DNA of 64,000 bases from the NCBI GenBank assembly GCA_016782605.1, contig JADHYE010000001.1, positions 11,128-75,127 on the forward strand, given 5' to 3'. The position numbers and the translations under genes are program-made. This document shows, in pieces, positions 5,154 to 59,994 of the stretch (its first letter is position 1; each line of letters opens with the position of its first letter). The notes under the pieces are model-generated. The model had not been told where the DNA came from, searched no databases, and saw only the letters and a program-made list of their open reading frames with translations. This stretch comes from Minisyncoccota bacterium (lineage in GTDB: Bacteria > Patescibacteriota > Minisyncoccia > Minisyncoccales > RBG-13-42-11).

Positions 5154-5789
5154 TCATTTTTTCAATAAAGGAACGAAAATAAACCCTGGATGTTCTTTTT
5201 CTTCAAAATCAGTTTCGTTCTTTTTAATTAAAAGCCAGATTGAAGAATCAACCGGAGCAACAATCCTGCCTCCGATTTTCAGCTGCTTTTTCCAAGAATC
5301 GGGAATATTAACAGCACTAGCAGATGCTAAAATCTTGTCAAACCCTTCGACAAACTCAGGGTGAGAGGAGATATTGGGATAACCGTTGTTTCCGTCAAGA
5401 CAGAAAAACTGAACAATCCCCTTTTTAACGAAATTATATTTTGAAACGTTTTTCTCGCCAAAGTCCTTCAATTCCTGGATTATATCAAGGGAAATAACCT
5501 TTCCTTTTTTACCGACAATTTCAGCTAACAAAGCGCTGGTCCAGCCAGAGCCTGAACCAACATCCAAAACCTTATCCCCTTCATGCAAATCCAGCAATTC
5601 CATCATAAAAGCAACAACCAAAGGCTGAGAAATGGTCTGGCCGAATCCTATAGGCAAAGCCTCGTTGATCTCTGCTAAATTCTTTGAGTCTTCCGGCAAA
5701 AAATCGCTTCTCTTTATTTTTTTAAAAGCTTCTATCACTTTCGGCGTTTTCAGCCAGTTATCTTTAATTAGCTCTTCAATAAGCGGCAT
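5154..5789 (-). CDS. pcm: protein-L-isoaspartate O-methyltransferase
   Basis: 211 aa with a SAM-binding motif (VLDVGSGSGW) and a GQTISQP motif typical of Pcm. Confidence 0.85.
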   Translation of the reverse strand: MPLIEELIKDNWLKTPKVIEAFKKIKRSDFLPEDSKNLAEINEALPIGFGQTISQPLVVAFMMELLDLHEGDKVLDVGSGSGWTSALLAEIVGKKGKVISLDIIQELKDFGEKNVSKYNFVKKGIVQFFCLDGNNGYPNISSHPEFVEGFDKILASASAVNIPDSWKKQLKIGGRIVAPVDSSIWLLIKKNETDFEEKEHPGFIFVPLLKK

Positions 5790-5790
5790 A

Positions 5791-5860
5791 CTAGGTAGTA
5801 GAAATTCGACAAATTTATTTTTCTTTGCTGCCAGGCAGCAGTCGAATTTTCACTACCTGG
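5791..5860 (-). mobile_element. family B hairpin (MITE-like) element, copy B1
   Basis: 70 bp. Arms are ctaggtagtagaaattcgac / gtcgaattttcactacctgg. Flanked by cata at 5787-5790 and 5861-5864 (TATG in gene sense). 5789-5787 is the pcm ATG. Confidence 0.7.
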
Positions 5861-6312
5861 CATAGTTTTTGTGGTAAACTCATTTTATCAATAAATAGTA
5901 TTCCGTCCAAGTGGTCAATCTCGTGCTGGAAAACCCTGGCTGACAATCCATCAACTTTCATTTTGATTTTTTCCCCCTGCAGATTAAGAAACTCCAGTTC
6001 CACTTCCTTAGCTCTTTTAATCTTTAAAAACAAACCAGGAAAACTCAAGCATCCCTCTTCCATGACTTCTGTCTTTCTGCTTTTCCGCACGATCTTTGGA
6101 TTTATGAAAACTTGCGACTTTCCTTCAAAAAAAGCAGCGATTATGCTTTTTGATTCGCCGATCTGAGAAGCAGCCAATCCAATGCCGTCTTTTTCCATCA
6201 TTATCTTTTTCATTTCTTCGGCCAATATCTTCACCTCCTCGGTTATCTCCTTGATCGCAGAAGATTTCTTTCTCAGTATTGGATTTGGATATTCTAATAT
6301 TTGCTTACTCAT
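5815..6312 (-). CDS. def: peptide deformylase
   Basis: EGCLSFPG and QHEIDHLDG metal-site motifs. The last ~15 codons (CQVVKIRLLPGSKEK*) and the stop codon are encoded by element B1. Confidence 0.9.
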   Translation of the reverse strand: MSKQILEYPNPILRKKSSAIKEITEEVKILAEEMKKIMMEKDGIGLAASQIGESKSIIAAFFEGKSQVFINPKIVRKSRKTEVMEEGCLSFPGLFLKIKRAKEVELEFLNLQGEKIKMKVDGLSARVFQHEIDHLDGILFIDKMSLPQKLCQVVKIRLLPGSKEK

Positions 6313-7534
6313 GTCTTCTTAATGCATCAACTGGTTTTAATTTAGCAGCTGTCCTGGCCGGCAGAACTCCGGAAACGCAACCGATAATAAAAGAAAAAAC
6401 CAAGCCGAAAACAACCAAACCGAGGTTTACCGAAGCAGTAAAATAGAAAACAGGATGCACCTGTCCATAGAATTCAATACCTTTGGCCAGTAAGGAACCG
6501 AGCAGAGTGCCGCCTATCCCTCCAATTAAACCGACAATGCCCGCTTCAAAAAGAAATATCAAAAGGATAGCTGAGTTTTTCGCTCCAATTGCCTTCATGA
6601 TACCTATTTCTTTAGTCCTTTCTCTGACCGAAGTAAACATGCTGTTAGTAATTCCGATGCCCCCGACAATAATGGCAATGCTGGCAAAAGCAAAAATGAC
6701 CATCTGAATTATGCCCAAAATATTGCCGGCTATCGCCCCCATTTTTTCGGAAGTGATAACGGAAAAATCAGCCTCGTCGGTTCCTGACCTTCTCTTTCTT
6801 GTTTCGCTTAAGGCTTCTTCAATTTTTTGAGCCACGACATTCTCATCCACTCCGTCTTCAAGCTTAACCATGGCATAAGCAGCAGTGCCCCGCTTTTCTC
6901 CGGTAACGTCCTGGTAGACTTTCATATCCATATATACCATACTGTCGTCCTGCTTGCTGCCCAAGGAATCGAGCACTCCTGCCACCTGGAATTTTCTTCC
7001 CTTTATCGTTATTTCCGAACCGGCTTTCACTTCCTTTGAGAAAATTTCAGTGGCCACCTGGGAACCGATTAAAACTTCGTTTCCTTTGCTCGGCCACCTT
7101 CCTTCGGTCAAACTCCAGCCCTGAAAAATGCTCAAAATATCCAAACCTTCCTTCCACGGATCATAGCCGGCGATGGCTATTTGCTTTGATTCTTCCTTAA
7201 ACCTGGCAATAGCTCCGGTATAAGAAAATCCCAAAACCTTGTCTACGCCTTCTGCTTTTTTAATCGCTTCAATGTCTTCTTTCTGCAGCTTTGCGCCACC
7301 GAACATCATGGACGTAAGAAGATCTTCATCGCTGCCCGGCATAACCATAACCATTTCTCCGCCCATGGCCTGCAGCTGCTGGTTTATCGTTGATTTCAAT
7401 CCTTCTGACAGAGAAAGCAGGGAAATTATTAAAAAAACGCCAATGACAATGCCTAAAATAGTAAGAAAACTTCTCAATGACCTTGTTCTGATATTTCTGA
7501 CGGCAATATTAAAATATTCTTTTAATTCTTCCAT
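6305..7534 (-). CDS. ABC transporter permease, MacB/FtsX type
   Basis: 409 aa. N-terminal TM helix, large extracytoplasmic domain, three C-terminal TM helices. Overlaps the neighbouring ATPase gene. Confidence 0.85.
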   Translation of the reverse strand: MEELKEYFNIAVRNIRTRSLRSFLTILGIVIGVFLIISLLSLSEGLKSTINQQLQAMGGEMVMVMPGSDEDLLTSMMFGGAKLQKEDIEAIKKAEGVDKVLGFSYTGAIARFKEESKQIAIAGYDPWKEGLDILSIFQGWSLTEGRWPSKGNEVLIGSQVATEIFSKEVKAGSEITIKGRKFQVAGVLDSLGSKQDDSMVYMDMKVYQDVTGEKRGTAAYAMVKLEDGVDENVVAQKIEEALSETRKRRSGTDEADFSVITSEKMGAIAGNILGIIQMVIFAFASIAIIVGGIGITNSMFTSVRERTKEIGIMKAIGAKNSAILLIFLFEAGIVGLIGGIGGTLLGSLLAKGIEFYGQVHPVFYFTASVNLGLVVFGLVFSFIIGCVSGVLPARTAAKLKPVDALRRHE

Positions 7535-12690: not shown

Positions 12691-13347
12691 TTATAATTTT
12701 CCAATTGATTTGCCGTATTTTCTCCTCCAGGCTTCTATCATTTTGTGATTACCCGAAACCAAAACTTTAGGTACCCGCCATTTCTGGAAAACTTCAGGCC
12801 TGGTGTATTGCGGATATTCCATAAATCCCTTTTCCTTAGTTATCCTTTCTTTCAATAAAGCAGGTTTGCCCAAAACTCCAGGTATTAACCTTGTTATGGT
12901 TTCCATAACTATCATTCCAGGCAACTCCCCTCCCATCAAGTCGTAGTCGCCAACTGACAACTCCATATCAGCAATGTGTTTGGCTACTCTTTCATCAACC
13001 CCTTCATACCGGCCGCAAATCATAATTATCTGGTTTAATTTTGACAACTGATAAGCTGTTTTCTGATTGAATTTCTTTCCCCGGGGAGTAAATAATATGA
13101 CTTTTGTTTTGCCTTTGCCTTTTATCTTTCTAACAGCTTTATATATGGACTCTACCTTCAAAACCATACCCAGCCCTCCGCCAAAAGGCCTATCATCAAC
13201 TGTTTTGCGCTGATCTTTGGCCCAGTCCCTCAAATTATGGACATTTATCTTAATCAATTTCTTTTCCCTGGCTTTCTTAATAAAAGACTCCTTCAGATAA
13301 GAATCGAATATTTGGGGAAAGATTGTAATAATATCAAATTTAAGCAT
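12691..13347 (-). CDS. trmD: tRNA (guanine37-N1)-methyltransferase
   Basis: 218 aa, TrmD-like throughout (MLKFDIITIFPQIF..., GGELPGM). Confidence 0.9.
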   Translation of the reverse strand: MLKFDIITIFPQIFDSYLKESFIKKAREKKLIKINVHNLRDWAKDQRKTVDDRPFGGGLGMVLKVESIYKAVRKIKGKGKTKVILFTPRGKKFNQKTAYQLSKLNQIIMICGRYEGVDERVAKHIADMELSVGDYDLMGGELPGMIVMETITRLIPGVLGKPALLKERITKEKGFMEYPQYTRPEVFQKWRVPKVLVSGNHKMIEAWRRKYGKSIGKL

Positions 13348-13348: not shown

Positions 13349-13480
13349 CCCTGTATATCAACATCCAGGCATTTTCAATGCGAAAACACCCTGAAGATTG
13401 TCTTTATTTAATAATATATTTAACATAATAACTTTGTTTGAGATTTTAATACGAAGTATTCTGGATGTTGTATTACGGGG
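13349..13480 (-). mobile_element. family A element, copy A2
   Basis: 132 bp, flanked by cata at 13345-13348 and 13481-13484. 13347-13345 is the trmD ATG. Confidence 0.7.
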
Positions 13481-14447: not shown

Positions 14448-15137
14448 TTACCAATGTTTGACTGCTAAAGCGTTTTTCGCTGCCTCAACTTCTGCTTCTT
14501 GTTTTGAAGATCCTTTGCCTTCGGCCACTAAATCCTTATCAAGGAAAACGCCGATAACGAAATTCTTTGCGTGATCCGGCCCGTGTTCTTTCAAAACTTT
14601 ATAGGTCGGAGTAATGCCCACTCTTTCTTGGGCTGCTTCCTGGAAAGTGGATTTAGCATCCCTGAAAAGACCTTTCTCAATGATTTCCGGCAATTTAACG
14701 ATTAAATTCTTTTTAATGAATTTTTCGCATGCTTTATAGCCTGAATCAAGGTAAGCTGAACCGATAAACGCTTCAAAAGTGTTGGCCAGGATATAATCCC
14801 TTGATTTGCCTGTTTCTTTCATTTCTCCTTTTGAAAGAAGCAAAAAATCATTAAAGCCCAATTCCTTAGCAACCTCAGCAAGCATTTTAGCATTAACCAG
14901 AGAAGCGCGCCAGTTGGTCAATTCGCCTTCCGGCTTTTTGGGATATTTGACAAAAAGGTGTTCGGTAATAATAAGTTCCAAAACCGCATCTCCCAAAAAT
15001 TCCAGTCTTTCATTGTTATCCAGATTGGCTTTCGGATTCTCGTTCAGATAGGAGCGATGGCAAAAAGCCTGAATCAATAAATCCTTGTTTTTGAATTTAA
15101 AATTTAATTGCTTTTCCAATATTGAAAAATCATTCAT
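14448..15137 (-). CDS. rnc: ribonuclease III
   Basis: Signature NERLEFLGDAVLE and a C-terminal dsRBD (..GSSKQEAEVEAAKNAL). Confidence 0.9.
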   Translation of the reverse strand: MNDFSILEKQLNFKFKNKDLLIQAFCHRSYLNENPKANLDNNERLEFLGDAVLELIITEHLFVKYPKKPEGELTNWRASLVNAKMLAEVAKELGFNDFLLLSKGEMKETGKSRDYILANTFEAFIGSAYLDSGYKACEKFIKKNLIVKLPEIIEKGLFRDAKSTFQEAAQERVGITPTYKVLKEHGPDHAKNFVIGVFLDKDLVAEGKGSSKQEAEVEAAKNALAVKHW

Positions 15138-15267
15138 ATACCGAGTCCGCCCAAGGCGGGCGAAGGTGAAGAAGAGGTTTACCTCTTCGACTTACTTTTC
15201 TAATACCGAGTCCGCCCAAGGCGGGCGAAGGTGAAGAAGAGGTTTACCTCTTCGACTTACTTTTCTA
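15138..15267 (-). repeat. perfect 65-bp tandem duplication (2 units) of a two-hairpin intergenic module that includes the nusB stop codon
   Basis: 15138-15202 and 15203-15267 are identical by eye. Each unit contains GTCCGCC-caa-GGCGGGC and GAAGAGG-ttta-CCTCTTC hairpins plus ..cttacttttcta (the last nusB codons). Confidence 0.8.
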
Positions 15268-33152: not shown

Positions 33153-33575
33153 TCACTCAATGGTAATGCCCATGTTCTTAGCCGTACCCTCAATTATTTT
33201 CATTGCCTGTTCGATGTCATCTGCGTTCAAATCAGGCATCTTTTTCAAAGCTATTTCTTTCAATTGTGCCCTTGAAATCTTGGCCACTTTAGTTTTATTG
33301 GGAGTGCCAGAGCCCTTTTCAATGCCAGCTGCTTTTTTCAATAATTCGGAAGCTGGCGGCTGCTTCAAGATAAAAGTATAGGTTCTGTCCTCAAAAACCG
33401 TGATTTCAACCGGAATAACGAAACCCTGGTTGTTTTTGGTCGCATCGTTGAACCTCTGGCAGAACTCGGATATGTTCACTCCGTATTGAGCCAAAACAGG
33501 ACCGACCGGAGGAGCCGGAGTCGCCAGAGCTGCTTTAATTTGAAGTTTTACGATTGCTTTTACTTTTTTTGCCAT
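33153..33575 (-). CDS. rplK: 50S ribosomal protein L11
   Basis: 140 aa. [26 protein letters not shown].. is canonical L11. Confidence 0.95.
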
Positions 33576-33870
33576 AGTGGTAATACCTAATTAAGTCGCG
33601 GCTCGCGCATATTATATATTAATATATTGCCTTCGGCGAATGTGCTACTGCCGCTCTTTAGAAGACGAACGCAGTGAGGCGGGAAAAAAGATTTATCTCT
33701 TTGACCACTCTCGGTGCTCAATGAAGCTAAAGCTTCATTTCGGTCTGCGCTTCCGTGAACGGAAGCTTGCCTTCTAACGTTTTCCACCTCATCGGCGGAA
33801 ATCCTGTTTTCCTATACGGAAGAACCTGATGGTTCTTCCGACCCATCTCCGATATGGGATACTATTACGT
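33576..33870 (-). repeat. composite structured leader repeat F2, directly upstream of the rplK ATG
   Basis: Shares the start-proximal block with F1 and F3, block 33651-33739 with F1, and block 33807-33868 with F3 (57726-57787). Confidence 0.6.
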
Positions 33871-34939: not shown

Positions 34940-36871
34940 CTAAATGTCTAAATTCTTAACGCCTTTGGCATGCGTCTGGATGAATTTCTTTCGGGGCAGC
35001 ACTTCATCTCCCATCAAGATATCGAAAATTCTGTCAGCTTCCTTGACATCTTCAATATCTACCCTTAATAAAGTCCTTTTTTCAGGATTCATGGTGGTTT
35101 CCCAAAGCTGATCCGGATTCATTTCTCCCAAACCCTTGTATCTTTGTATCGAAACATTCAAGATTTTCTCTTTCTTCAATTTCATTAAAACCTTGTCTTT
35201 TTCCTCTTCGGTATATGCATATTCTATCTTTTTGCCTGACTGTAAACGGTAAAGAGGAGGCTGAGCAATATATATGAAGCCTTTTTCAATCAGCAGCTTG
35301 AAATAGCGGTAAAAAAGAGTTAAAAGAAGAGTTCTTATATGGGAACCGTCAACATCAGCATCAGTCATTATAATAATGCGGTGGTATCTGGCCTTTTCAA
35401 TTTTAAAATCATCAGCCACTGCCGTACCCAAAGCAATGATCAATGATTTTATCTCTTTGGAAGAAAGCATCTTGTCCAGACGGGCGCGCTCAACATTCAA
35501 TATCTTTCCCCTTAAAGGCAGAATAGCCTGGAATCTTCTGTCCCTAGCCTGGCGAGAACTGCCGCCAGCTGACTCACCCTCAACTATGTAAAGTTCTGAG
35601 TCTTCGGGATTTCGAGAACTGCAGTCAGCCAATTTGCCCGGCAAAGCCAATCCCTCTAATGCTCCCTTGCGCAAAACAGTCTCACGCGCCACCCTAGCTG
35701 CTTTCCTGGCTTTTGAAGAAAGAATACATTTTTCAATAATCGCCCGGGCATCCTGCGGATTCCTTTCCAAAAAATCAGTCAGGGTTTCCGAAACAACTGC
35801 TTCCACTGCTGTTTTGGCCTCAGGATTACCTAACTTTGCTTTGGTCTGTCCTTCAAATTGCGGCTCTTTGATTTTTACGGAAACCACGCCGGTAAATCCC
35901 TCTCTGACGTCTTCACCCGACAAATTCTCATCGCTTTCTTTAAGAATGCCGTTCTTTTTGGCGTAATCGTTAAAAGTCCTGGTTAAAGCGGTTCTAAAGC
36001 CGGTCAAGTGATTTCCCCCCTCTCCGGTAAAAATGTTATTGGCAAAACTTTCTTCAAAACATTCATATTCTTCAGTATATTGGAAAGCTGCCTCAACCAG
36101 AATTCCTTCTTTTTCCCCGATACCGTAATAGATATTGGGATGGCGCTTAACCACGTCTCTGGTCAGATATTTGACGTATGAAGACAGTCCGCCCTCAAAA
36201 TAAAAAGCGTAGAACTTTTCCGGTTTTTCCCTTTGGTCAATGGCAGTGATTCTTATCTTTTTTGTCAGGTAAGCCTGCTGCCTGAGATGTTTCAGAATCT
36301 TATTAAAATCGAATTTGATTTCGCTGAATATCTCAGGATCCGGTTCAAAGTAAACCGTGGTGCCTGTCTGCCTGCATTTGCCGTCTTTTTTAACGGCTGT
36401 TTTAGGCTTTCCTTTGGCATATTCCTGGCAATACCTAATGTTATCTCGGCAGACTTCAACCCTCATCCATTTTGAAAGCGCGCAGACCACGGAAACTCCC
36501 ACGCCGTGCAAACCGCCAGCCACCTGGTAAGCTTTGCCTCCGAATTTAGCTCCGGCATGCAATGTTGTCATTACGGTTTCCAAAGCTGATTTTTTAGTTT
36601 GCCAGTGCCTTTCAACCGGAATTCCCCTGCCATCGTCAGTTGTCTTCACTTTGTTGCCTGGCGAAAGAATAACTTCAATGTTTTTTGCATGCCCGGCCAT
36701 TGCCTCATCCAAACTGTTATCAATGCATTCCCAAATCAAATGATGAAGTCCCTCTGGACCGGTTGAACCGATATACATGCCGGGCCTTTTCCTGACAGGA
36801 TCAAGGCCTTCCAAAACATAAATGTCTTTGGCAGTATAATCTTTTTCAGTTTTTTTAGGTTTTTGTAGCAT
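34940..36871 (-). CDS. gyrB: DNA gyrase subunit B
   Basis: GHKL ATPase and TOPRIM (EGESAGGS) domains. The ORF-track start (36898) runs into repeat A3. ATG at 36871 gives MLQKPKKTEKDYTAKDIYVLEGL.... Confidence 0.95.
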   Translation of the reverse strand: MLQKPKKTEKDYTAKDIYVLEGLDPVRKRPGMYIGSTGPEGLHHLIWECIDNSLDEAMAGHAKNIEVILSPGNKVKTTDDGRGIPVERHWQTKKSALETVMTTLHAGAKFGGKAYQVAGGLHGVGVSVVCALSKWMRVEVCRDNIRYCQEYAKGKPKTAVKKDGKCRQTGTTVYFEPDPEIFSEIKFDFNKILKHLRQQAYLTKKIRITAIDQREKPEKFYAFYFEGGLSSYVKYLTRDVVKRHPNIYYGIGEKEGILVEAAFQYTEEYECFEESFANNIFTGEGGNHLTGFRTALTRTFNDYAKKNGILKESDENLSGEDVREGFTGVVSVKIKEPQFEGQTKAKLGNPEAKTAVEAVVSETLTDFLERNPQDARAIIEKCILSSKARKAARVARETVLRKGALEGLALPGKLADCSSRNPEDSELYIVEGESAGGSSRQARDRRFQAILPLRGKILNVERARLDKMLSSKEIKSLIIALGTAVADDFKIEKARYHRIIIMTDADVDGSHIRTLLLTLFYRYFKLLIEKGFIYIAQPPLYRLQSGKKIEYAYTEEEKDKVLMKLKKEKILNVSIQRYKGLGEMNPDQLWETTMNPEKRTLLRVDIEDVKEADRIFDILMGDEVLPRKKFIQTHAKGVKNLDI

Positions 36872-46035: not shown

Positions 46036-47112
46036 TTAAAATAATCTGGCAACGTCTTTTATCGTCACCAAAACCATTAATAAAAGTAATAAACTGAAAA
46101 ATACAGCTGTTATGTTCTGCTCCACTTTTTCGCTAATCGGCCTTCTCCTGATAGCTTCAATCCCCAGAAATAATATCTTGCCTCCGTCAACTGCTGGAAT
46201 GGGCAGAATATTGAAAATAGCGATATAAATGGCCACTATGCCGACAAATTGCAGAAAATAATTCGTTCCCATCTGGCTAGCCTGAGTAAAAAGATGAACG
46301 ACCCCTACCGGACCCATCAGTTCAACTCCCGAAGACTGGCCTTGAACAATATTGCTTATCACTTGGCCGTAACCTTTAATTATTGCTCCTGTCATATTAA
46401 CCGTTGCCACCAATCCCTGCCAAGGAGCCTGGTACCAGGAAAAAGACTGCATTGCTGTTCTGACTAAAGCTACGCCCAAAGGACCTTCTCCTGCTGGCGG
46501 CGAAACTCGAGGTACGACTTTGACGTCAAAAACTTCATTCCCCCTTTCAACCGTCAAAACAATCTCTTCTCCTAAATGAGTATTACTGAACTCCTGCACT
46601 TCCCGTATTTTACCAACAGCCAATTGCTCCTCGCTAATTGCCATTCCTTTTATCGTATCCCCAGGTTGTAAGCCAGCAAGTTTTGCCGGAGAGCCAGCAG
46701 AAATGCTAGCAATCTGCACTCTTGGATTAACTAAACCAGAAGCTTCATCGTCTACAGCCACTGCTGTTCCTAAATTGAAAACAATAGCAAATAGAATTGC
46801 TGCCACTATCCAAAAAGAAAGCACTCCGGCAAAAGCAATTAAAGCCCTTTTCCAGACAGCCTGACCTGAAAAACTGCGAGGGTCATTTACCTGACCTATT
46901 TCGCCCGGCATTTTTACGAAAGCACCTAGGGGCAGAAGATTTAAAGAATAAATAGTATCGCCAATTTTTTTTCCGAATATCCTGGGAGGGAAACCTATGC
47001 CAAATTCTTCAACTTTTACTCCGAATTTCTTTGCTACGATAAAATGGCCGAATTCGTGAAGAGTTACTAGCCCTATTAAGCTTAAAGAAGCGATAAGAAT
47101 TGTTAAAAACAT
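46036..47112 (-). CDS. rseP: site-2 (RseP-type, M50) zinc metalloprotease
   Basis: HEFGHF motif, PDZ-like segment, several TM helices. Confidence 0.85.
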   Translation of the reverse strand: MFLTILIASLSLIGLVTLHEFGHFIVAKKFGVKVEEFGIGFPPRIFGKKIGDTIYSLNLLPLGAFVKMPGEIGQVNDPRSFSGQAVWKRALIAFAGVLSFWIVAAILFAIVFNLGTAVAVDDEASGLVNPRVQIASISAGSPAKLAGLQPGDTIKGMAISEEQLAVGKIREVQEFSNTHLGEEIVLTVERGNEVFDVKVVPRVSPPAGEGPLGVALVRTAMQSFSWYQAPWQGLVATVNMTGAIIKGYGQVISNIVQGQSSGVELMGPVGVVHLFTQASQMGTNYFLQFVGIVAIYIAIFNILPIPAVDGGKILFLGIEAIRRRPISEKVEQNITAVFFSLLLLLMVLVTIKDVARLF

Positions 47113-47113: not shown

Positions 47114-47245
47114 CCCTGTATATCAACATCCAGGCATTTTCAATGCGAAAACACCCTGAAGATTGTCTTTATTTAATAATATATTTAACATAATAACTTT
47201 GTTTGAGATTTTAATACGAAGTATTCTGGATGTTGTATCACGGGG
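47114..47245 (-). mobile_element. family A element, copy A5
   Basis: 132 bp, flanked by cata at 47110-47113 and 47246-47249. 47112-47110 is the rseP ATG. Confidence 0.7.
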
Positions 47246-47249: not shown

Positions 47250-47810
47250 TTATTCTGATATTTCTTTTTTCTTATTCTCTCCCATTTCTTCTATCTTTTT
47301 ATTGTAATCGTCAACCAACTCCTGAAGCTCGTCTTTAGCCCGGAACTTGTCATCCTCCCTGATTTCTCCCTGTTTTGTTTTATCCTGGATTTCACTCCAA
47401 ACCTCTTCCCTCCACTTTCTAATAGTCCTTCTTGACTGTTCTTCTTTTTCCGCAATGGTCCTGGTTAAATTCTTCCTGTATTCTTCGTTCAAAGGCGGCA
47501 AATTAATCCTGACTGCATCCTTGTCAACAATTGGATTAGCGCCGATTCCCGTCTTTTCCAAAGCTGAAACAATGCCTTCGATATAAGACTTATCCCAAGG
47601 CTGAATTAAAATCTGCTTTGCCTCAGGTGTAGAAATGGCAGCCAATTGTTTTAAAGGAAACTTCTGGCCGAAACAGTCAACAACAACATCCTCCACCAAA
47701 GAAGGCGTTGCCCTGCTGGTACGAATCTTATTCATTTCCTTTTCTAAAAAGCCGATTACCTTGTCTAATTCCGGTTTAATATTTTGAATGATTGTTTTGT
47801 AGCTATCCAT
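47250..47810 (-). CDS. frr: ribosome recycling factor
   Basis: 186 aa, Frr-like throughout (..IRTSRATPSLVE..). Confidence 0.95.
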   Translation of the reverse strand: MDSYKTIIQNIKPELDKVIGFLEKEMNKIRTSRATPSLVEDVVVDCFGQKFPLKQLAAISTPEAKQILIQPWDKSYIEGIVSALEKTGIGANPIVDKDAVRINLPPLNEEYRKNLTRTIAEKEEQSRRTIRKWREEVWSEIQDKTKQGEIREDDKFRAKDELQELVDDYNKKIEEMGENKKKEISE

Positions 47811-47811: not shown

Positions 47812-47943
47812 CCCTGTGTATCAACATCCAGGCATTTTCAATGCGAAAACATCCTGAAGATTGTTTTTATTTAATAATATATTTAACATAATAACTTTGT
47901 TTGAGATTTTAATACGAAGTATTCTGGATGTTGTATTACGGGG
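47812..47943 (-). mobile_element. family A element, copy A6
   Basis: 132 bp, flanked by cata at 47808-47811 and 47944-47947. 47810-47808 is the frr ATG. Confidence 0.7.
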
Positions 47944-52177: not shown

Positions 52178-52183
52178 TATAAT
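52178..52183 (+). promoter_or_regulatory. -10 hexamer TATAAT placing a predicted TSS on the A of the upstream duplicated ATG (52190)
   Basis: TATAAT-AATCAT-ATG. The -35 is weak. Confidence 0.35.
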
Positions 52184-52192
52184 AATCATATG

Positions 52193-52264
52193 CCAGGTAG
52201 TGAAAATTCAACCACTGCCGCGGCAGTGAAAAAAATAATAATTTGTCGAATTTCTACTACCTAG
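52193..52264 (+). mobile_element. family B element, copy B3 (inverted relative to B1 and B2, matching its plus-strand gene)
   Basis: 72 bp, flanked by tatg at 52189-52192 and 52265-52268. 52266-52268 is the ATG of the 52266-53570 gene. Confidence 0.7.
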
Positions 52265-52265
52265 T

Positions 52266-53570
52266 ATGACCAAAAAGACAAAAACAATACTGTTTTTAGC
52301 CTGCTTACTTGCATTCATCCTGTTAGCTCCCTCAATAGTCCTGTACTCCCAAGGATACAGAATTGATTTTAATCCTCCAGAAGGCGGAAAAATGATTACC
52401 CAAACCGGAGGCCTTTTTTTGAAAGTCACGCCCAAACAAACAGATATTTATATTGACGGCAAACCTAAAAAAAGAACTGATTTTCTATTCGGTTCTGTTT
52501 TAATTGAAAACCTCATTCCTGGAAAGTACAAAGTAGAAATCAAAAAATTAACCAGCCAGGAAGAATACTATCCCTGGGAGAAAAACCTGGAAATACGGGA
52601 AAAACAGGTAACTGAAGCCAAGAACGTTGTCCTTTTCCCGAAAAACGTTAATTTCAACGTCTTATCAACCAACGTAGAACAGCTTTGGCTTTCTCTGGAC
52701 CAAAAGAAACTAATCTTAAAGGAAAATGAAAAAGCCAGCTGGTCCTTAAAGCTTTACGACCCGGAAAAGAATATAAAAAGCTATTTAATAAGCGACGAGG
52801 ATTTCTTCACGAAAGAACCCCAATTAATCAATCTGAAATTCTCGGGAGACTCAAGAAGTATTAATCTGGAAGTCAGCATAAAAGAAGCAATACAATCTTT
52901 TTCTCTGCAACTTGACCAAGCAAAACCAACTTTAAATAAAAAAACAGCAGCCACAACGACAACTGGAAACGCTGCTATCTCGCAACAAGCAGGCAATGAT
53001 ATATATTATCTGGACAGTTTCGGCTATCTTTTCAGGAATAAAGAAAAGCTGGCAGAAACTCCCTTTCAAACAAAACAAGAAACAGAATATGCTTTAGATA
53101 TTTTCAACGGCAACATATTCTTAAAAGAAAACGACAAACTGTACAAATTCAATTACAATCTGAAAACATTTGAACATTTCTTTGACGGAATCAATATCTT
53201 AAAGCTTTCTCCGGACAATAAAAAACTGCTTTACGCTTCAAACAATGAAATGTGGATTCTTTTCCTGGAAGACAAAATCGACCAGCCGCAGAAAAAATCA
53301 GGAGAGAAAATCTTTTTAATCCGCTTATCAGACCAAATCACAAGCATCTCCTGGATAAACGACAATTACCTGGCTTTTCTTGCCGGCAATACCGTTAAAA
53401 TCATTGAAATAGACGACAGGGACAGAATAAACGTTATAGACATCTTTGAAACAAAAAACCTCCCTCAAGAAGGAAGCATTAATGAAATGTCCTGGAACAG
53501 GTTTGACAATAAAATCTATCTCTTGGACGAAAACGGCTATTTATATAGCTCTAACGTCCTGCTCCCGTAA
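52266..53570 (+). CDS. hypothetical membrane-anchored protein with a PEGA-like domain and a C-terminal propeller-like region
   Basis: 434 aa. N-terminal TM helix, and TDIYIDGKPKKRT...PGKYKVEIKK resembling PEGA. Confidence 0.5.
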   Translation: MTKKTKTILFLACLLAFILLAPSIVLYSQGYRIDFNPPEGGKMITQTGGLFLKVTPKQTDIYIDGKPKKRTDFLFGSVLIENLIPGKYKVEIKKLTSQEEYYPWEKNLEIREKQVTEAKNVVLFPKNVNFNVLSTNVEQLWLSLDQKKLILKENEKASWSLKLYDPEKNIKSYLISDEDFFTKEPQLINLKFSGDSRSINLEVSIKEAIQSFSLQLDQAKPTLNKKTAATTTTGNAAISQQAGNDIYYLDSFGYLFRNKEKLAETPFQTKQETEYALDIFNGNIFLKENDKLYKFNYNLKTFEHFFDGINILKLSPDNKKLLYASNNEMWILFLEDKIDQPQKKSGEKIFLIRLSDQITSISWINDNYLAFLAGNTVKIIEIDDRDRINVIDIFETKNLPQEGSINEMSWNRFDNKIYLLDENGYLYSSNVLLP

Positions 53571-54269
53571 TTTGATTTTCTTTTTAAAAGCTTCCCAGCC
53601 CATTTCTCCGGTATTGGCTATAACGCAAACTTCCTTGAACTGGCAATAACGACACTGCCAATTATCGGGGTAATCCGATAATCTGTCGGGAATAACGTTC
53701 TTATCAATCTTCTTTCTAATACCAGCCAAAAAGTCCAAAAGAGAAAGGGCGCATTTTTTATCGTATTTTACGACAAAATCCTTCAGCTGCTGGTTATCTT
53801 TATTAACGTAAAGCAGTATTCCTTTAGGAATCTTAAAATAATGGAGATAAAGCTGAAGCTGAGCAATATTTTCCTCCTTTGGCTCAGTTAACTTACCAAA
53901 AATCATGCTGTTCATACTTTTAATATCCAAAACATATAGTTCCTTGCCATCGCTGATTATGGCATCAGCCCTGCCTGAAATCAGTTCCTGAGGAGGAATA
54001 TTAACTTCGGCAGCCACCACATGGATTTCCCTGGTGCTCAAAAGCGGCTTCATAATAAGCTGATGGATGTGGTCGCCATGGTCAAACAGCCTTAGAATAT
54101 TGGCCTCCATCTCCTTTCTGGGAACATTCTTGAACTTAAAAAACAAAGCTCTGCCGCATTTGCCTGCGTCAGTAATATAAAAGTGATGCTGCTCTTTATC
54201 TCTTTGCCTGTCCAAATAGAATTTATCGATTATATCTTTAAGAAACATAGAGTTTATCTCTTCTGCCAC
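53541..54269 (-). CDS. PD-(D/E)XK nuclease with a Cas4-like 4-Cys arrangement
   Basis: One N-terminal Cys (DAGKCGRA), a D..DIK catalytic-type motif, QLQLY, and C-terminal CRYCQFKEVC (Cx2Cx5C). Confidence 0.6.
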   Translation of the reverse strand: MAEEINSMFLKDIIDKFYLDRQRDKEQHHFYITDAGKCGRALFFKFKNVPRKEMEANILRLFDHGDHIHQLIMKPLLSTREIHVVAAEVNIPPQELISGRADAIISDGKELYVLDIKSMNSMIFGKLTEPKEENIAQLQLYLHYFKIPKGILLYVNKDNQQLKDFVVKYDKKCALSLLDFLAGIRKKIDKNVIPDRLSDYPDNWQCRYCQFKEVCVIANTGEMGWEAFKKKIKLREQDVRAI

Positions 54270-54739
54270 TGAGGAGCACGACGAGCGCGCTTCAATCCGA
54301 ACTTCTTTCTTTCCCTCATCCTCGGGTCTCTTTTCAAAAAACCAGCTTTTTTCAACTGTTTCCTCAATTCTGGATCGAATAAAACTAAAGCGCGAGTTAA
54401 ACCGTGCCTGACAGCTTCAGCCTGGGAAGTCGTCCCTCCCCCTTTAACTTTTACTGAAACCTGAAATTTGTCAGAATAATCAGTCAAAATCAAAGGAGAA
54501 AAAATAATACGCTGAAGGTATTTTGTCGGAAAATAATTTTCAAAAGTCCTTGTATTTATTAAAAAGGTCTTTTCTTTTTGAACAGAAATTCTCACCCTGG
54601 CTACAGCTGTCTTTCTCCTGCCTATGCCCTCAAAATACCTGGCTACTTTAGGTTTAACTGTTACTTTGGCAGTTTTTTTAGCTGGAGCTTTTTTGACTTT
54701 CTTTACTGTTTCTTTTTTTGTTTTTTTAGCCTTTGGCAT
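54254..54739 (-). CDS. rpsI: 30S ribosomal protein S9 with a Lys-rich N-terminal extension
   Basis: C-terminus ..RERKKFGLKRARRAPQWQKR is canonical S9. The ORF-track start (54760) runs into repeat A7. ATG at 54739 gives MPKAKKTKK... Confidence 0.9.
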   Translation of the reverse strand: MPKAKKTKKETVKKVKKAPAKKTAKVTVKPKVARYFEGIGRRKTAVARVRISVQKEKTFLINTRTFENYFPTKYLQRIIFSPLILTDYSDKFQVSVKVKGGGTTSQAEAVRHGLTRALVLFDPELRKQLKKAGFLKRDPRMRERKKFGLKRARRAPQWQKR

Positions 54740-54740: not shown

Positions 54741-54872
54741 CCCCGTATATCAACATCCAAGCATTTTCAATGCGAAAACACTCTGAAGGCTGTTTTTATT
54801 TAATAATATATTCAACATAATAACTTTGTTTGATATTTTAATACGAAGTATTCTGGATGTTGTATTACAGGG
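54741..54872 (-). mobile_element. family A element, copy A7
   Basis: 132 bp, flanked by cata at 54737-54740 and 54873-54876. The rplM stop codon (54867-54865) lies inside the element. Confidence 0.7.
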
Positions 54873-55217: not shown

Positions 55218-55568
55218 TTATTTAACCAATTCTATTATGGCTATTTTGGCAGCATCTACTTTTCTTTGGCCAAGCTTAATAATCCTGGTATATCCTCCTT
55301 TTCTTTCTTTGAATCTCGGGGCGATCTCATCAACCAATTTCTTAACCACTTTTCCAGTAAAAAACTTTGCCAATAATCTGCGCGAAGCCAAAGTGCCGAC
55401 TTTCGCTTTGGTAATCTTTTTTTCAACGAAAGAGGAAACCTCTTTTGCCTTAGCTTCTGTTGTTTTAACTTTTTCTTTCAATATCAAAGCAGCAGCTAAA
55501 GATCTTAAAAGAGCGTTTCTTTGGTCTTTTTCCCTATTTAGTTTTTTCCCTTTTTTTCTTTTTCTCAT
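55218..55568 (-). CDS. rplQ: 50S ribosomal protein L17
   Basis: 116 aa with ..GYTRIIKLG.R..D.A..A.IEL typical of L17. Confidence 0.9.
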   Translation of the reverse strand: MRKRKKGKKLNREKDQRNALLRSLAAALILKEKVKTTEAKAKEVSSFVEKKITKAKVGTLASRRLLAKFFTGKVVKKLVDEIAPRFKERKGGYTRIIKLGQRKVDAAKIAIIELVK

Positions 55569-56364
55569 TTTTTACTTTTTTGCTTACTGCTTTCTTTTCT
55601 TTTTTCGGCTTCTTGGCCGCTTTTTTCTTTTCTTTGTCTTCCGGTTCTACAGATGCAGCTTTCGGCTGGAAAGCTGTAGCCAGCAACGAAAAGTGGCTAA
55701 TCAAAATTTCCGAAGCCTGATAAAATGCCTGTTCCGGATCGATAATGCCGTCTGTTTCAATTTCCAGAAACAATCTGTCAAAGTCAGTTCTTTCTCCGAC
55801 ACGCATATTCTCAACCCTGGAACTTACCCTTTTTACAGGAGTAAAGCTGGCATCCAGCAGAATAGCTCCTATCTCTAATTTTTCAGGCATGGAGCCTGCT
55901 GTTTTTTTCCTTGTTTCGCGGCTGGAATAGCCAATTCCCTTTTCAATCTGGATTTCCATTTCCAGTTCAGCGGATTTTGAATTCAAAGTGGCAATATGGC
56001 AGTTTTTATTTACCAATTCCACTTGGCTGGGCAGCTTGAAATCAAAGCCCTTCACTGCTTTTTCTCCCTTAACTTTCAGGGTCGCTTTCTGTGGCTCGTC
56101 GCTAAAAAGCTTAAATCTCAATTGCTTCAAATTAAGCATTATAGTGATAACGTCTTCTAAAACTCCTGAAATCGTTGAGAACTCATGGGAAACTCCCTTG
56201 ATTTTGACTTGGGTAATAGCAGCTCCTTCAAGCGAAGAAAGCAAAACCCTTCTCAAAGAATTGCCGACGGTTACTCCGTAGCCAGGACGCAAAGCTTCTA
56301 TTTCAAAAACAGCTTTGTTCCCTTCTTTTTTAACTATTTTGGGAGCGTGAGGTAAATTAATCAT
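55534..56364 (-). CDS. rpoA: DNA-directed RNA polymerase alpha subunit, N-terminal domain only, plus a Lys-rich tail
   Basis: About 235-aa alpha-NTD (..GNSLRRVLLSSL..) followed by a ~40-aa KKEK-rich tail. No alpha-CTD-like sequence. Confidence 0.9.
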   Translation of the reverse strand: MINLPHAPKIVKKEGNKAVFEIEALRPGYGVTVGNSLRRVLLSSLEGAAITQVKIKGVSHEFSTISGVLEDVITIMLNLKQLRFKLFSDEPQKATLKVKGEKAVKGFDFKLPSQVELVNKNCHIATLNSKSAELEMEIQIEKGIGYSSRETRKKTAGSMPEKLEIGAILLDASFTPVKRVSSRVENMRVGERTDFDRLFLEIETDGIIDPEQAFYQASEILISHFSLLATAFQPKAASVEPEDKEKKKAAKKPKKEKKAVSKKVKNEKKKKREKTK

Positions 56365-56422
56365 ATAGCGAGTCCCGCAACAACGGGACGAAGGTTAAGA
56401 AGAGGATGAATTCCTCTTCGAT
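56365..56422 (-). repeat. two-hairpin intergenic module related to the nusB-rnc unit
   Basis: atagcgaGTCCCGcaacaaCGGGACgaaggttaaGAAGAGGatgaattCCTCTTCgattta fills the whole rpsD-rpoA spacer. Same architecture as 15138-15202 with different stem sequences. Confidence 0.6.
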
Positions 56423-57052
56423 TTATTTTGAGTAAAACTCGAAAATTGCGGAGAGTTCTGCCGGTGGGACAGCCTCTTCTAAATTTGGTGAATCGATGAC
56501 CTTTGCCTCCAGCTTCTCAGCGTCTAATTTGAGCCAAGACGGAGGATTATATTTTTTTAAAGTAGATGATAATTTCTGGAAAATTGTTTTTTTTAAAGAA
56601 TTGGGGTTAACGCTTATTTTGTCCCCTTTCTTAACCAGATAGCTGGAAATATTAATCGGCCTGTCGTTAACCATAAGATGGCTGTGGGAAACCATTTGTC
56701 TGGCAGCAAATTTGGAAGGAGCGAAACCTAATCTGAAAACTACATTGTCCAAGCGGCTCTCCAAAGTTTTAATTAAAGCAGCGCCGGCATCCGTCACCTT
56801 TCCCCTGGCCTTTAAAATATCTTTGACGTAGTTCCTGAATTGCTTCTCTTCCAAATTATACCAGTTCTTTAATTTTTGTTTTTCCCTTAATTCTTTACCG
56901 TATTCAGAAAGCGATTTCACTCTTTTTTTAGCTTTTGGCCCTGGCGGATAAGGTTTTTTGATCATTGGGCATTTCTGCGATGAGCACCTTTCGCCTCTCA
57001 AAAAAAGCTTAATTCCTGCACGACGGCAAATTTTGCATTTAGAAACATTCAT
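56423..57052 (-). CDS. rpsD: 30S ribosomal protein S4
   Basis: 209 aa with an N-terminal zinc-ribbon-like CKICRR..C segment and an S4 domain. Confidence 0.95.
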   Translation of the reverse strand: MNVSKCKICRRAGIKLFLRGERCSSQKCPMIKKPYPPGPKAKKRVKSLSEYGKELREKQKLKNWYNLEEKQFRNYVKDILKARGKVTDAGAALIKTLESRLDNVVFRLGFAPSKFAARQMVSHSHLMVNDRPINISSYLVKKGDKISVNPNSLKKTIFQKLSSTLKKYNPPSWLKLDAEKLEAKVIDSPNLEEAVPPAELSAIFEFYSK

Positions 57053-57053: not shown

Positions 57054-57185
57054 CCCTGTATATCAACATCCAGGCATTTTCAATGCGAAAATATCCTGAA
57101 GGCTGTCTTTATTTAATAATATATTTAACATAATAACTTTGTTTGATATTTTAATACGAAGTATTCTGGATGTTGTATTACAAGG
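57054..57185 (-). mobile_element. family A element, copy A8
   Basis: 132 bp, flanked by cata at 57050-57053 and 57186-57189. 57052-57050 is the rpsD ATG. Confidence 0.7.
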
Positions 57186-57192
57186 CATAAGT

Positions 57193-57642
57193 TTATACCC
57201 TTCTTACTTTTGGCTTACGACAGCCGTTATGCGGAACTGGAGTCATATCCTTAATTGAAACTATTTCCAAACCCCTGGCAGCCAATGACCTAATAGCTGA
57301 ATCTCTGCCAGAACCTATCCCCTTTACGAAAATCTCTATCTTTTCAATCCCTATTTTCTCGGCAATCTGGACGATTGCTTCAGCTACCTTGGAAGCAGCA
57401 AAAGGCGTTGCTTTTTTTGCTCCTTTGAAACCGATATTGCCAGCGCTAGTCCAGCCCAAAACATTACCCTTTGGATCTGTCAAAGTAAGGATGGTGTTGT
57501 TATAAGAAGAAGCAATGTAAATTCTGCCCTCTTGTATCCTTTTAAGGGTTTCTTTGGCCTGCTCTTTCACTTTCGTTTCCATGGCTTCACCTTCTTTCAA
57601 AATCTCTTCTTCAGTTTGTCGTATAACACGTTTTTTACCCAT
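57193..57642 (-). CDS. rpsK: 30S ribosomal protein S11
   Basis: C-terminus ..DMTPVPHNGCRKPKVRRV is canonical S11. Confidence 0.95.
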   Translation of the reverse strand: MGKKRVIRQTEEEILKEGEAMETKVKEQAKETLKRIQEGRIYIASSYNNTILTLTDPKGNVLGWTSAGNIGFKGAKKATPFAASKVAEAIVQIAEKIGIEKIEIFVKGIGSGRDSAIRSLAARGLEIVSIKDMTPVPHNGCRKPKVRRV

Positions 57643-57794
57643 AATGGTAATACCTAATTAGGTCGCGGCACGTCCCACTTGCAGCGGGACTAACACCGCT
57701 CTTTAAAAACCCTCGGTTTTTAATATTTTCCTACACGGAAGAACCAAAGGGTTCTTCCGACCCATCTCCGATATGGGACGTTATTACTGAATTA
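57643..57794 (-). repeat. composite structured leader repeat F3, filling the rpsM-rpsK spacer
   Basis: 152 nt. Contains hairpins CCCAT..ATGGG, GGAAGAACC..GGTTCTTCC, AAAAACC..GGTTTTT and GTCCCGC..GTGGGAC, and ends ..GCCGCGACCTAATTAGGTATTACCATTATG. Confidence 0.6.
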
Positions 57795-58184: not shown

Positions 58185-58189
58185 AAGTT

Positions 58190-58306: not shown

Positions 58307-58339
58307 AATAAAAAAACAATAATGACTTATTGCGCGAAA

Positions 58340-58555: not shown

Positions 58556-58603
58556 TAAATAGGCAATTTTTTAGTTTATCAGAAATTAGTTATTTGGTCA
58601 ATG

Positions 58604-59905
58604 CTAATCAATGACCAGATTGAATTTAATCTTACTTAGGTCTTCTGGCACCTTATTGACCCAGAATGGCCAAAACTTGACGCTGGCCCTGGTAATCTTA
58701 GGATAGTTTTCCAAGAAGAGCTTAGCCTCGAGCAAAGACTTTCCTTTTAAGGCGTTTTTAAAGCTGAAAATGTCAACGTCAGCATAGATTTTAGCTGAAA
58801 TTGTCAAAGAAACAGCAATTTTGCCGGTCTCTAAATCAACATCGTCAATAGAATAATTTATTTTCAAACTTTCCTCATAAAGCTTTTTATCCTGGGGAAT
58901 TTGAAAAGTAATCGCTTCTTTAACGTAATTCCTAATATCTTCTTTCTTAAACACTACGACTTGGCATTGCGCTTTCACCTGATAATTAAAGTCTTTTGCT
59001 TCTGTTTCAGCAGAAGTCAAAGAAAAGTTCTCAATAATTTCTGTCTGGATGCTGTCTGGCAAATAATCGAACTTGGAAGAAATCGCTTCTGACTGCAGTT
59101 CTTTCTGCAGCAGTTCATTGCATTCTTTCTCCGCTTGTTTTGTTAAAGTTTCTTCAGCTTGAGATAAATCCTTTTCTGTCACTTTAGCAATTTCTTCATG
59201 GAAGCCGCCTGCCATTGCTTCAAAAGATTCGCCGTAGAATTTAGTATACCTGTCTGTGCCGGCAAATCCCGGTACGGAGAACTTGGTCAAAGCGATATTG
59301 TATTCTTCGCCAGGCTGATCTGCCACCACTTTTACATCTATTTCTCCTGGAACAAGCTTTCCTTTCTCATAAGTACCTCCAGGAACAGTAACTTTGATTG
59401 GCGTGCGGAATACCTTTCCGTCAGCTGAAACAAAACGGGTAGTGGCTATTAAAACCTGCTGCGAAGTTGAATAGGCATTGTACACTTTTATTGTGCCTTG
59501 CGCCTTCTCCTCTTTCATAATTTTACCGGAAGCCGGAAAAGTCTGAACAATGGTTTTTTCTTTCTGAAGCGTTTCTGCCGGAATAATCTTTAAAAGAGAA
59601 TCAATAGCTGTTGCGTTTTTGTCGATATTCGTTTCTTCTATAAGATTAAAAACTTCTGTCTCCGGCCAAACGCTTATTTCAGCTTTAGACAAAGCAATGT
59701 AGCAAAACGCTCCCAATAAAACCAAAAAAAGCAAAGAAAAAGTCAAACCCTTTTTAAAGGGTGGATTAGGAGCTTTTTTAGGAAAACCCCACAAAGGAAC
59801 CTTGGGCTTTTGCTCTAGTTCTATCTTTACTTCTGGCTCTTTGTGCTCCTCCTTTTTTTTCTCTTTTTTCGAAGGAGGGAAAACGTCTATTACTTTTTTG
59901 CTCAT
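58604..59905 (-). CDS. hypothetical membrane-anchored protein
   Basis: 433-aa ORF with a Lys-rich N-terminus and one TM helix. No family recognised. Confidence 0.45.
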   Translation of the reverse strand: MSKKVIDVFPPSKKEKKKEEHKEPEVKIELEQKPKVPLWGFPKKAPNPPFKKGLTFSLLFLVLLGAFCYIALSKAEISVWPETEVFNLIEETNIDKNATAIDSLLKIIPAETLQKEKTIVQTFPASGKIMKEEKAQGTIKVYNAYSTSQQVLIATTRFVSADGKVFRTPIKVTVPGGTYEKGKLVPGEIDVKVVADQPGEEYNIALTKFSVPGFAGTDRYTKFYGESFEAMAGGFHEEIAKVTEKDLSQAEETLTKQAEKECNELLQKELQSEAISSKFDYLPDSIQTEIIENFSLTSAETEAKDFNYQVKAQCQVVVFKKEDIRNYVKEAITFQIPQDKKLYEESLKINYSIDDVDLETGKIAVSLTISAKIYADVDIFSFKNALKGKSLLEAKLFLENYPKITRASVKFWPFWVNKVPEDLSKIKFNLVID

Positions 59906-59906
59906 A

Positions 59907-59979
59907 CCAGGTAGTAGAAATTCGACTAATTAAACATTATTATCACTGCCGCGGTAGTGGTCGAATTTTCACTACCTGG
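59907..59979 (-). mobile_element. family B element, copy B2
   Basis: 73 bp, flanked by cata at 59903-59906 and 59980-59983. 59905-59903 is the ATG of the 58604-59905 gene. Confidence 0.7.
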
Positions 59980-59988
59980 CATAATAAT

Positions 59989-59994
59989 ATTATA
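59989..59994 (-). promoter_or_regulatory. -10 hexamer TATAAT placing a predicted TSS on the A of the upstream duplicated ATG (59982)
   Basis: Minus strand reads TATAAT-ATTATT-ATG. Same 6-nt spacing as at 52178-52192. Confidence 0.35.

Follow-up and report, generated by a model that had tools for sequence, protein, structure and literature searches.

Why do short hairpin-forming repeats sit exactly on start codons in a patescibacterial genome, and why does their orientation follow that of the gene? The question is raised by a 64-kb stretch of a Minisyncoccota bacterium (contig JADHYE010000001.1, positions 11,128 to 75,127; hereafter the window), for which a preliminary description had reported three such repeats, termed family B, each lodged between two copies of the tetranucleotide TATG. 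We examined these copies, B1, B2 and B3, by reading their flanks, arms and open reading frames (ORFs) at nucleotide level, and direct reading confirmed all three hairpins and their duplications. We conclude that they are probably non-autonomous copies, of the type known as MITEs (miniature inverted-repeat transposable elements), of an ultra-compact element of Patescibacteria, or candidate phyla radiation (CPR), whose full-length form consists of the same arms and a single ORF for a GIY-YIG nuclease.

5787-5790, minus strand: gene-proximal TATG copy of B1 (CATA on the plus strand); its ATG, 5787-5789, starts pcm (5154-5789)
5791-5860, minus strand: B1, a 70-nt family B miniature element
5861-5864, minus strand: upstream TATG copy of B1 (CATA on the plus strand), within the 3' end of the def ORF
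52178-52183, plus strand: TATAAT, candidate leaderless -10 box of the B3 host, 6 nt before the upstream ATG copy (TAGAAT in relatives)
52189-52192, plus strand: upstream TATG copy of B3
52193-52264, plus strand: B3, a 72-nt family B miniature element, inverted on the chromosome along with its host gene
52265-52268, plus strand: gene-proximal TATG copy of B3, start of ORF 52266-53570 (434 amino acids)
59903-59906, minus strand: gene-proximal TATG copy of B2 (CATA on the plus strand), start of ORF 58604-59905 (433 amino acids)
59907-59979, minus strand: B2, a 73-nt family B miniature element
59980-59983, minus strand: upstream TATG copy of B2 (CATA on the plus strand)
59989-59994, minus strand: TATAAT, candidate leaderless -10 box of the B2 host, 6 nt before the upstream ATG copy (retained in relatives whose site is empty)

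Read in gene sense, family B elements follow the layout (T)ATG, CCAGGTAGTGAAAATTCRAC, GC mini-hairpin, A/T tail, GTCGAATTTCTACTACCTRG, TATG. In B1, the interior of which is similar to that of short copies in Portnoybacteria loci, these parts are the L arm CCAGGTAGTGAAAATTCGAC, the mini-hairpin TGCTGCCTGGCAGCA, the A/T tail and the R arm GTCGAATTTCTACTACCTAG. The 20-nt arm pattern has six matches in the window, compared with 0.01 expected from shuffles. All three copies are 70-73 nt long and non-coding, with 20-nt terminal inverted arms and interiors that hold only short reading frames interrupted by stops. Folded as RNA, they are predicted to form long hairpins with energies between -26.6 and -35.0 kcal/mol and z values between -5.1 and -7.4, and the stem continues into the flanking AUG/UAU. 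Rfam covariance models run against the window gave only six tRNAs above the gathering score and left B1-B3 unmatched. The site of B1 is not intergenic: the def ORF (5815-6312) crosses the upstream ATG copy and stops within the element. Like many further copies elsewhere, B1 sits at an operon-internal start. An exact-protein look-up of the B3 host gene returned no record.

The copies belong to a class of mobile DNA that duplicates 4 bp of its target. Relatives of the window were found through alaS (92%, 89% and 86% identity; the nearest named group is Nealsonbacteria), and at the B2 site the relative L207 reads gtgTATAATgttatTATGagcaaaaaagtaatagacg, where the window reads gtgTATAATattatTATG, then B2, then TATGagcaaaaaagtaatagacg. 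The same site is also empty in L210. The B3 site is empty in both L207 and L210 (tataGAATaatcaTATGaccaaaaa), and L209 holds an orthologous filled copy, a pattern that would fit precise excision and does not prove it, repeated hits on the site being the alternative. The empty sites of both elements contain TATAAT or TAGAAT, six nucleotides and ATG, with a single TATG. Exact empty sites were found for three other family B copies as well, with L037 and L118 reciprocally filled and empty at two sites and the rpmH start filled in L119 and empty in L094; the TATG-duplicating insertion proposed in the preliminary description thus holds within the window and beyond it. Copies are also multiple and dispersed, with three in the 64 kb studied here and about 22 in the examined loci of the metagenome-assembled genome (MAG) LBYG01. 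In orthologous insertions the arms are identical although the flanks are only 73-82% identical, a difference inflated by the ascertainment of copies through exact arms.

We scanned species-representative genomes with a degenerate arm pattern, which returned at least 120 arm-bearing stretches from Parcubacteria, Microgenomates and Berkelbacteria; among the matches listed were Portnoy-, Nealson-, Lipton- and Yanofskybacteria, Gottesmanbacteria, Berkelbacteria and further Patescibacteria. Approximate matching within the listed stretches gave 126 arm pairs, none spanning more than 330 bp, and all except one of these pairs combined a GTGAAAA-type arm with a GTAGAAA-type arm. The flanking tetranucleotides were identical in most of 125 non-redundant copies, TATG being the commonest (54 copies, and 10 more with its complement CATA), followed by AATG, CTTG, TTAG, TTCA, TCAA, CGTA, TAAA and others; AAAA flanks mark copies nested in the arm of another copy. 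A scan of viral contigs with the arms of family B, and with those of the sister family A described below, gave only single-arm chance matches within coding DNA.

Two features of the flanks stand apart. Family B copies of 71 nt have inserted into another copy's L arm, duplicating AAAA (GTGAAAA/TTCGAC), as at L096 203-273 and in L127, L079, L086, L100, L119 and L036, and this arm seems to be a recurrent secondary insertion target. In the Liptonbacteria MAG JACQKU01, which has a higher GC content, all three copies (in L104, L105 and L116) have duplications other than TATG, namely AATG, AATG and TTAG; this could reflect either inheritance of the flanking tetranucleotide or lineage-specific start contexts.

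Start codons are preferred targets. Counting ORFs of 60 amino acids or more, 84 of the 125 copies adjoin the ATG of such an ORF. For a background, the elements were removed in silico and ORFs crudely called. In the same loci 4062 TATG sites then lay in genes (75% of all), 386 marked called starts and 965 were non-genic. Where the element's duplication was of the ATG type, its sites comprised 54 starts, 19 non-genic positions and 16 positions 'in gene', the last mostly artefacts of ORF extension. Starts relative to other non-genic TATG sites thus stand at 54:19 for elements and 386:965 for the background, a preference of approximately sevenfold, so that purifying selection against genic insertions is not sufficient on its own to account for the bias.

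Orientation follows the downstream gene far beyond the three of three copies first noticed in the window. Judged by the arm signature, the 84 start-adjoining copies divide into 69 forward, 14 reverse and 1 ambiguous (binomial p = 7e-10). Even in the 'reverse' copies the polarity of the interior relative to the gene is unchanged, with the GC mini-hairpin distal and the A/T tail proximal, and only a 2-nt signature in the arms is swapped. Scored by the interior, 46 of 49 scorable copies agree in their polarity relative to the strand on which the duplicated ATG lies (46:3). That polarity is kept in all six copies that are not followed by an ORF of at least 60 codons, one of which precedes the 44-residue rpmH gene. 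None of the 65 full-length copies introduced below is reversed relative to its flanking ATG.

Several simple causes of this polarity were considered and set aside. Replication direction does not control it, because elements at genes on the minority strand still follow the gene (4 forward and 2 reverse by arm signature, a small sample). Nor does terminator polarity: A-runs come after the GC mini-hairpin and, on the other strand, T-runs come before it, so that an intrinsic terminator is formed in neither polarity. The A/T tail shows no sign of an outward promoter, with no positioned -10-like hexamer in 70 aligned copies and no good -10 in the R arm. Coupling through a mini-ORF or stop codon in the short copies fails as well, as the three window copies differ in frame and stop position and the arms are open in three frames.

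A coding partner with the same arms exists. In four long copies among the genome loci, an ORF of 86-91 amino acids fills the space between the arms, and its product is a GIY-YIG domain (PF01541, E = 5e-16) with invariant or near-invariant columns at Y..Y, YIG, R27, H31-N32, E51 and E63. Short and long forms are linked by a 125-nt MITE in L006, a deletion derivative that retains both ends of the GIY-YIG ORF. The long copies listed carry solely this ORF between their arms, with no DDE or HUH/Y1 ORF. A metagenome scan for relatives of the ORF returned at least 498, and of the best 80, in which we checked for arms, 65 have both (up to 4 mismatches, fixed spacing) and 12 more the upstream arm. These full-length elements measure 307-363 bp and are flanked by 4-bp duplications that are mostly TATG, with TGGA, CATG, AATG, CGTG and TGAA among the others; the arm signature is swapped in 10 of the 65. 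The family (GIY-B) comprises 2183 clusters at 90% identity, known in databases only as 'GIY-YIG nuclease family protein', 'putative endonuclease' or 'excinuclease ABC subunit C'. With pN 0.15, pS 0.75 and dN/dS of about 0.09 at saturated synonymous sites, the ORF is under strong purifying selection. An AlphaFold model (pLDDT 82) and the sequence itself point to the UPF0213/YhbQ proteins BH0048 and EF2693 and to Slx1 as the nearest solved relatives (1zg2, 1ywl, 6seh and 4xm5), with I-TevI a much weaker match.

The ORF overlaps both the duplication and the arms. The spacer between L arm and ORF ATG measures 7 nt in 44 of 52 elements; together with the 20-nt arm this makes 27 nt and places the duplicated host ATG in frame with the nuclease ORF. 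The frame runs on from that ATG into the ORF in 32 of 36 cases (MPGSENSTAI-MFYYVY...), and database gene calls of 97-103 amino acids contain this arm-encoded N-terminal extension. At the other end, 20 nt ahead of the host ATG, TA and the R arm's first G often make up the stop codon.

In L141, L145, L149 and L180, full-length copies stand directly behind another copy, the regenerated TATG having been re-used. Genomes of the same kinds also hold more distant small GIY-YIG ORFs, 33-43% identical, that lack the arms and are found within tRNA genes or next to them (L046 5810-6067, L103 about 2367-2603 and L004 2007-2270). No convincing inverted repeats surround the distant paralogues in the loci examined, several of which lie in or next to tRNA genes, and these arm-less ORFs are probably intron- or tRNA-associated genes of the homing type.

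The window contains a second set of elements built on the same plan. Eight family A miniatures all lie at starts in gene sense:

5021-5152, minus strand: family A copy whose duplication is TGAA/TGAA, shifted by a single base into the codon that follows the ATG
13349-13480, minus strand: family A miniature with arms CCCCGTAATACAACATCCAG and CTGGATGTTGATATACRGGG, on the start ATG of ORF 12691-13347
36873-37019, minus strand: family A copy at the start of ORF 34940-36871
41791-41922, minus strand: family A copy at the start of ORF 41259-41789
47114-47245, minus strand: family A copy at the start of ORF 46036-47112
47812-47943, minus strand: family A copy at the start of ORF 47250-47810
54741-54872, minus strand: family A copy at the start of ORF 54254-54739
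57054-57185, minus strand: family A copy at the start of ORF 56423-57052

At the first of these, the arm's last G and the duplicated TG may together supply a new host start, GTG. In a representative protein library clustered at 50% identity, some N termini seemed to be encoded by an arm, and that of P0294, MPSNTTSS, resembles the translation of the family A arm in the window. This protein belongs to a family (GIY-A) of 698 clusters, many of them from Nealsonbacteria, and in L211, L219 and L221 family A arms enclose a GIY-YIG ORF (ATG, CCCCGTAATACAACTTCCAG...CTGGAAGTTGATATACGGGG, TATG). Lacking an ATG itself, the GIY-A ORF uses the duplicated one of the host as its start (MPRNTTSS-VFFYTYIL...); it stops at a TGA within the R arm, and the next host gene begins at the right-hand ATG. 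GIY-A and GIY-B are 52% identical. The preliminary description had stated that the two families share only the frame ATGCC...GGTATG; this is true of the DNA and understates the link, since both families are miniatures of GIY-YIG elements that are homologous to each other. The two nuclease subfamilies have different 20-bp arms but agree in duplication and polarity, as one would expect if a mobility protein were matched to its ends.

The preliminary description had further conjectured that B2 and B3 inserted at genes with leaderless transcripts, and the TATAAT motifs exactly 6 nt before both upstream ATG copies are indeed present. In the window as in the empty sites of relatives, both hosts have a -10 hexamer at the spacing of leaderless starts, and the two elements may occupy formerly leaderless promoters. 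More broadly, the stretch 4-9 nt ahead of the ATG contains a TANNNT hexamer in 46% of 68 targeted starts and in 26% of 635 other starts (p = 9e-4), and the base profile of targeted starts peaks at G-14, A-11 and T-7, that is, TGnTAnnnT-N6-ATG. Motifs resembling the Shine–Dalgarno (SD) sequence precede 4% of targeted starts and 16% of other starts in the same loci. They are rare overall, occurring at 2 of 65 genes in the window and at 9-16% of genes in related loci, and an anti-SD motif was detected in just 48% of Parcubacteria 16S genes (PMC9297842). The conjecture is thus partly supported: it suits B2 and B3 and agrees with the enrichment, but it is no more than a candidate reading and is not required, as the operon-internal B1 and the full-length copies illustrate. 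On our reading, leaderless starts would be good or permissive targets and not the rule.

How might such an element move? Insertion duplicates 4 bp, nearly always (T)ATG and most often a host start codon. It sets the interior or ORF downstream of the upstream ATG copy and in the same direction, and the second copy restores the host ATG 10-20 nt past the nuclease stop. Without evident room for a promoter of its own, the element would depend on the transcription and start codon of the host gene, and the polarity that persists would be that which lets host promoter and ATG drive transcription and translation of the ORF. The nuclease itself may be what moves the element, recognizing its own arms, perhaps as an extruded cruciform given the Slx1-like fold, and cutting with a 4-nt stagger both at the element boundaries and at targets. 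As TATG ends are not palindromic, rejoining would be possible in one orientation only. Polarity would then be inherited with the flanks and not read from the arms, in which case a swapped arm signature would not matter. Miniatures, reduced to arms, GC mini-hairpin and A/T tail, would inherit the same polarity and be moved in trans, and SD-free translation would make the position before an ATG a permissive site. We advance tentatively, as a serious possibility that falls short of our favoured expectation for the copies themselves, that the full-length form represents a new class of prokaryotic transposon with an SLX1/UPF0213-like nuclease of about 90 residues as its sole protein, 4-nt staggered cuts at (T)ATG, one-way rejoining and captured host starts.

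Several points weigh against this account. The 2-nt arm asymmetry is swapped relative to the interior in approximately 15% of copies; these do not form a single clade, an explanation that we tried, but are scattered over the protein tree, and no model explains the recurrent swap cleanly. We found no GIY-YIG ORF in the 64-kb window, and a larger autonomous element with the same arms could exist beyond the matches listed. We know of no experimental case in which a GIY-YIG nuclease mobilizes DNA flanked by inverted repeats, and known GIY-YIG enzymes hydrolyse DNA and perform no strand transfer. The enrichment of leaderless-type starts is moderate (46% against 26%) and no -10-like enrichment is seen in full-length copies (11 of 35), and the ascertainment through exact arms reduces what arm conservation can say.

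The same body of evidence bears on four other explanations. Insertion could be random, with start association and polarity left by selection alone as insertions survive at permissive sites of compact genomes that do without SD motifs and harmful orientations are lost. The near absence of SD motifs and the large share of TATG sites inside genes suit this idea, as does an unrelated and apparently TA-duplicating repeat, family C, which also clusters on starts in the window and on the B2-orthologous start in L209. We nevertheless regard it as unlikely: polarity persists in 46 of 49 non-coding copies, in the six without an ORF of at least 60 codons (rpmH among them) and in all 65 full-length elements; the miniature interior holds no harmful polar signal that we could find, with no terminator either way and no positioned -10 box; and starts are preferred approximately sevenfold over other non-genic TATG sites. 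Less probable still is that a conventional transposase, for example of the DDE type, is encoded elsewhere and moves short and long copies alike, with the GIY-YIG ORF as cargo or helper. A 4-bp duplication and CC...GG ends are typical of DDE families such as IS1380, IS5 and IS701, a GIY-YIG transposase is without precedent in the literature searched, and arm-bearing stretches are known as a minimum of 120, leaving room for copies beyond those listed. However, all 126 arm pairs in the listed stretches stay within 330 bp, the arms enclose 65 of the 80 best GIY-YIG relatives at a fixed spacing, and both the duplicated ATG and the R arm are overlapped by the ORF. The strong purifying selection on this ORF, the separate arm sequence of each nuclease subfamily and the fixed orientation to a non-palindromic target, which is not expected from DDE insertion, also argue against this reading.

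That the hairpins are host regulatory structures acting in cis, in RNA or DNA, to control translation or serve as an RNase III site, and are not mobile at all, would accord with their great stability, their inclusion of the start codon and the conservation of orthologous arms beyond that of flanking coding DNA. Presence/absence polymorphism with an exact 4-bp duplication, unrelated host genes, hypervariable interiors, nested and tandem copies, nuclease-bearing versions and the lack of an Rfam match contradict regulation as the primary explanation and make it very improbable; secondary co-option by the host could still have followed. We give almost no credence to single-strand elements of the IS200/IS605 or REP/RAYT type (PATE/REPIN), which insert strand-specifically 3' of a fixed tetranucleotide, despite the hairpin, the fixed polarity to a short target and a GTAG within the arm that they would explain. 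The flanks vary yet match on both sides (TGGA, TTAG, TTCA, CGTG, AATG and others), which marks a true duplication of a kind that neither IS200/IS605 nor REP/RAYT elements make; moreover, HUH/Y1 ORFs were not seen between the arms, and polarity follows the gene on the minority strand too, as far as its six copies tell. The GIY-YIG element therefore remains our preferred source of the family B miniatures.

Compared with known systems, family B has the structure of the bacterial MITEs, such as the Correia elements of Neisseria, ERIC/IRU and the Rickettsia palindromic elements, which are likewise short, non-coding and multi-copy, have terminal inverted repeats and a target duplication, form hairpins in mRNA and, as is probable for family B, come from a longer coding element whose ends they share. 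Family B differs from them in that its duplication is a non-palindromic tetranucleotide that is the host start codon, its polarity is fixed, its coding partner encodes a GIY-YIG nuclease and not a DDE transposase, and its arms are nearly invariant across phylum-level lineages whereas its interiors are hypervariable. GIY-YIG homing endonuclease genes (I-TevI, T4 Seg and I-BmoI) are similar in that they are selfish DNA with no gene other than that of a GIY-YIG nuclease. By contrast, they have no inverted repeats or target duplication, occupy one cognate site and are copied by recombination, and their products (about 245 residues in total) include a large DNA-binding domain, whereas the element protein is a single domain of 86-104 residues and family B, with inverted arms and a 4-bp duplication, occupies hundreds of unrelated start codons. 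UPF0213/YhbQ and SLX1, the closest in sequence and predicted fold, are stationary host genes without flanking repeats. SLX1 cuts branched DNA, and a 20-bp inverted repeat could in principle extrude such a structure; by analogy, the element nuclease may cut cruciforms.

Among transposons, piggyBac, IS1380 and similar elements also duplicate a sequence-specific 4-bp target and have ends that begin with CC, and the precise excision of piggyBac would suit B3, which is filled in two relatives and empty in a closer one. However, the piggyBac target TTAA is palindromic and leaves orientation free, its transposases have several hundred residues, and none of the matches listed contains a DDE ORF between the same repeats, as in elements of the IS1380, IS5 or IS701 kind. 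IS200/IS605 elements and integron cassettes resemble family B in their fixed polarity to the target and folded DNA ends, and integron cassettes additionally in carrying promoterless ORFs behind a resident promoter. Unlike family B, they depend on HUH or tyrosine recombinases and do not duplicate 4 bp of the target, and cassettes enter a single attI site rather than start codons across the genome. The partner enzyme is not of the DDE, HUH, serine or tyrosine type. Full-text literature searches of incomplete coverage yielded neither prokaryotic GIY-YIG genes bounded by inverted repeats nor start-codon-targeting MITEs in CPR bacteria, which at that coverage is no evidence of absence.

We regard miniature and partner as a MITE/insertion sequence pair. 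If the nuclease were confirmed as the mobility enzyme, the partner would constitute a new transposon class, and the GIY-YIG fold would join the short list of DNA-moving enzymes. With its length of about 310 bp, the partner would then have the smallest architecture of any self-contained transposable element known to us, with a parasitic strategy that we have not seen described, in which the upstream start copy serves the element's own ORF and a fresh copy is returned to the host. The elements also bear on translation initiation in CPR bacteria, whose genomes here have next to no SD motifs and many seemingly leaderless starts. For annotation, thousands of patescibacterial 'GIY-YIG nuclease' or 'excinuclease ABC subunit C' calls are likely to be element genes, and a compact, orientation-specific, ATG-targeting insertion system would be of interest for tools.

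Families A and B are not the only repeats at starts in the window. In minus-strand sense, family C begins with TA/RYRTCCCATATCGGAGATGGGTCGGAAGAACC and ends with ..GCCGCGACYTAATTAGGTATTACCAY/TA/TG on the starts of ORFs 3075-3587, 33153-33575 and 57193-57642 (copies at 3588-3760, 33576-33870 and 57643-57790). It looks like a TA-duplicating element that cuts inside TATG, and its copy in L209 (11640-11781) sits on the start codon held by B2 in the window. A further repeat, D (..GAAGAGGnAAnCCTCTTC..CCTTCGnCCGC..GCGGGACTCGSTAT/ATG), lies at 15133-15262 and about 56365-56440 and adjoins the starts of ORFs 14448-15137, where it forms two tandem 65-nt units, and 55534-56364. In total, 16 of 65 gene starts in the window are directly abutted by a repeat (8 A, 3 B, 3 C and 2 D), and 55 of the 65 genes are on the minus strand. 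Hairpin modules (GAAGCTTTAGCTTC.. and GAAAAGAGATTTATCTCTTTGAC) are shared between 3632-3727, 33644-33739 and 63822-63912; they lie inside or next to family C composites and are inverted near the end of the window.

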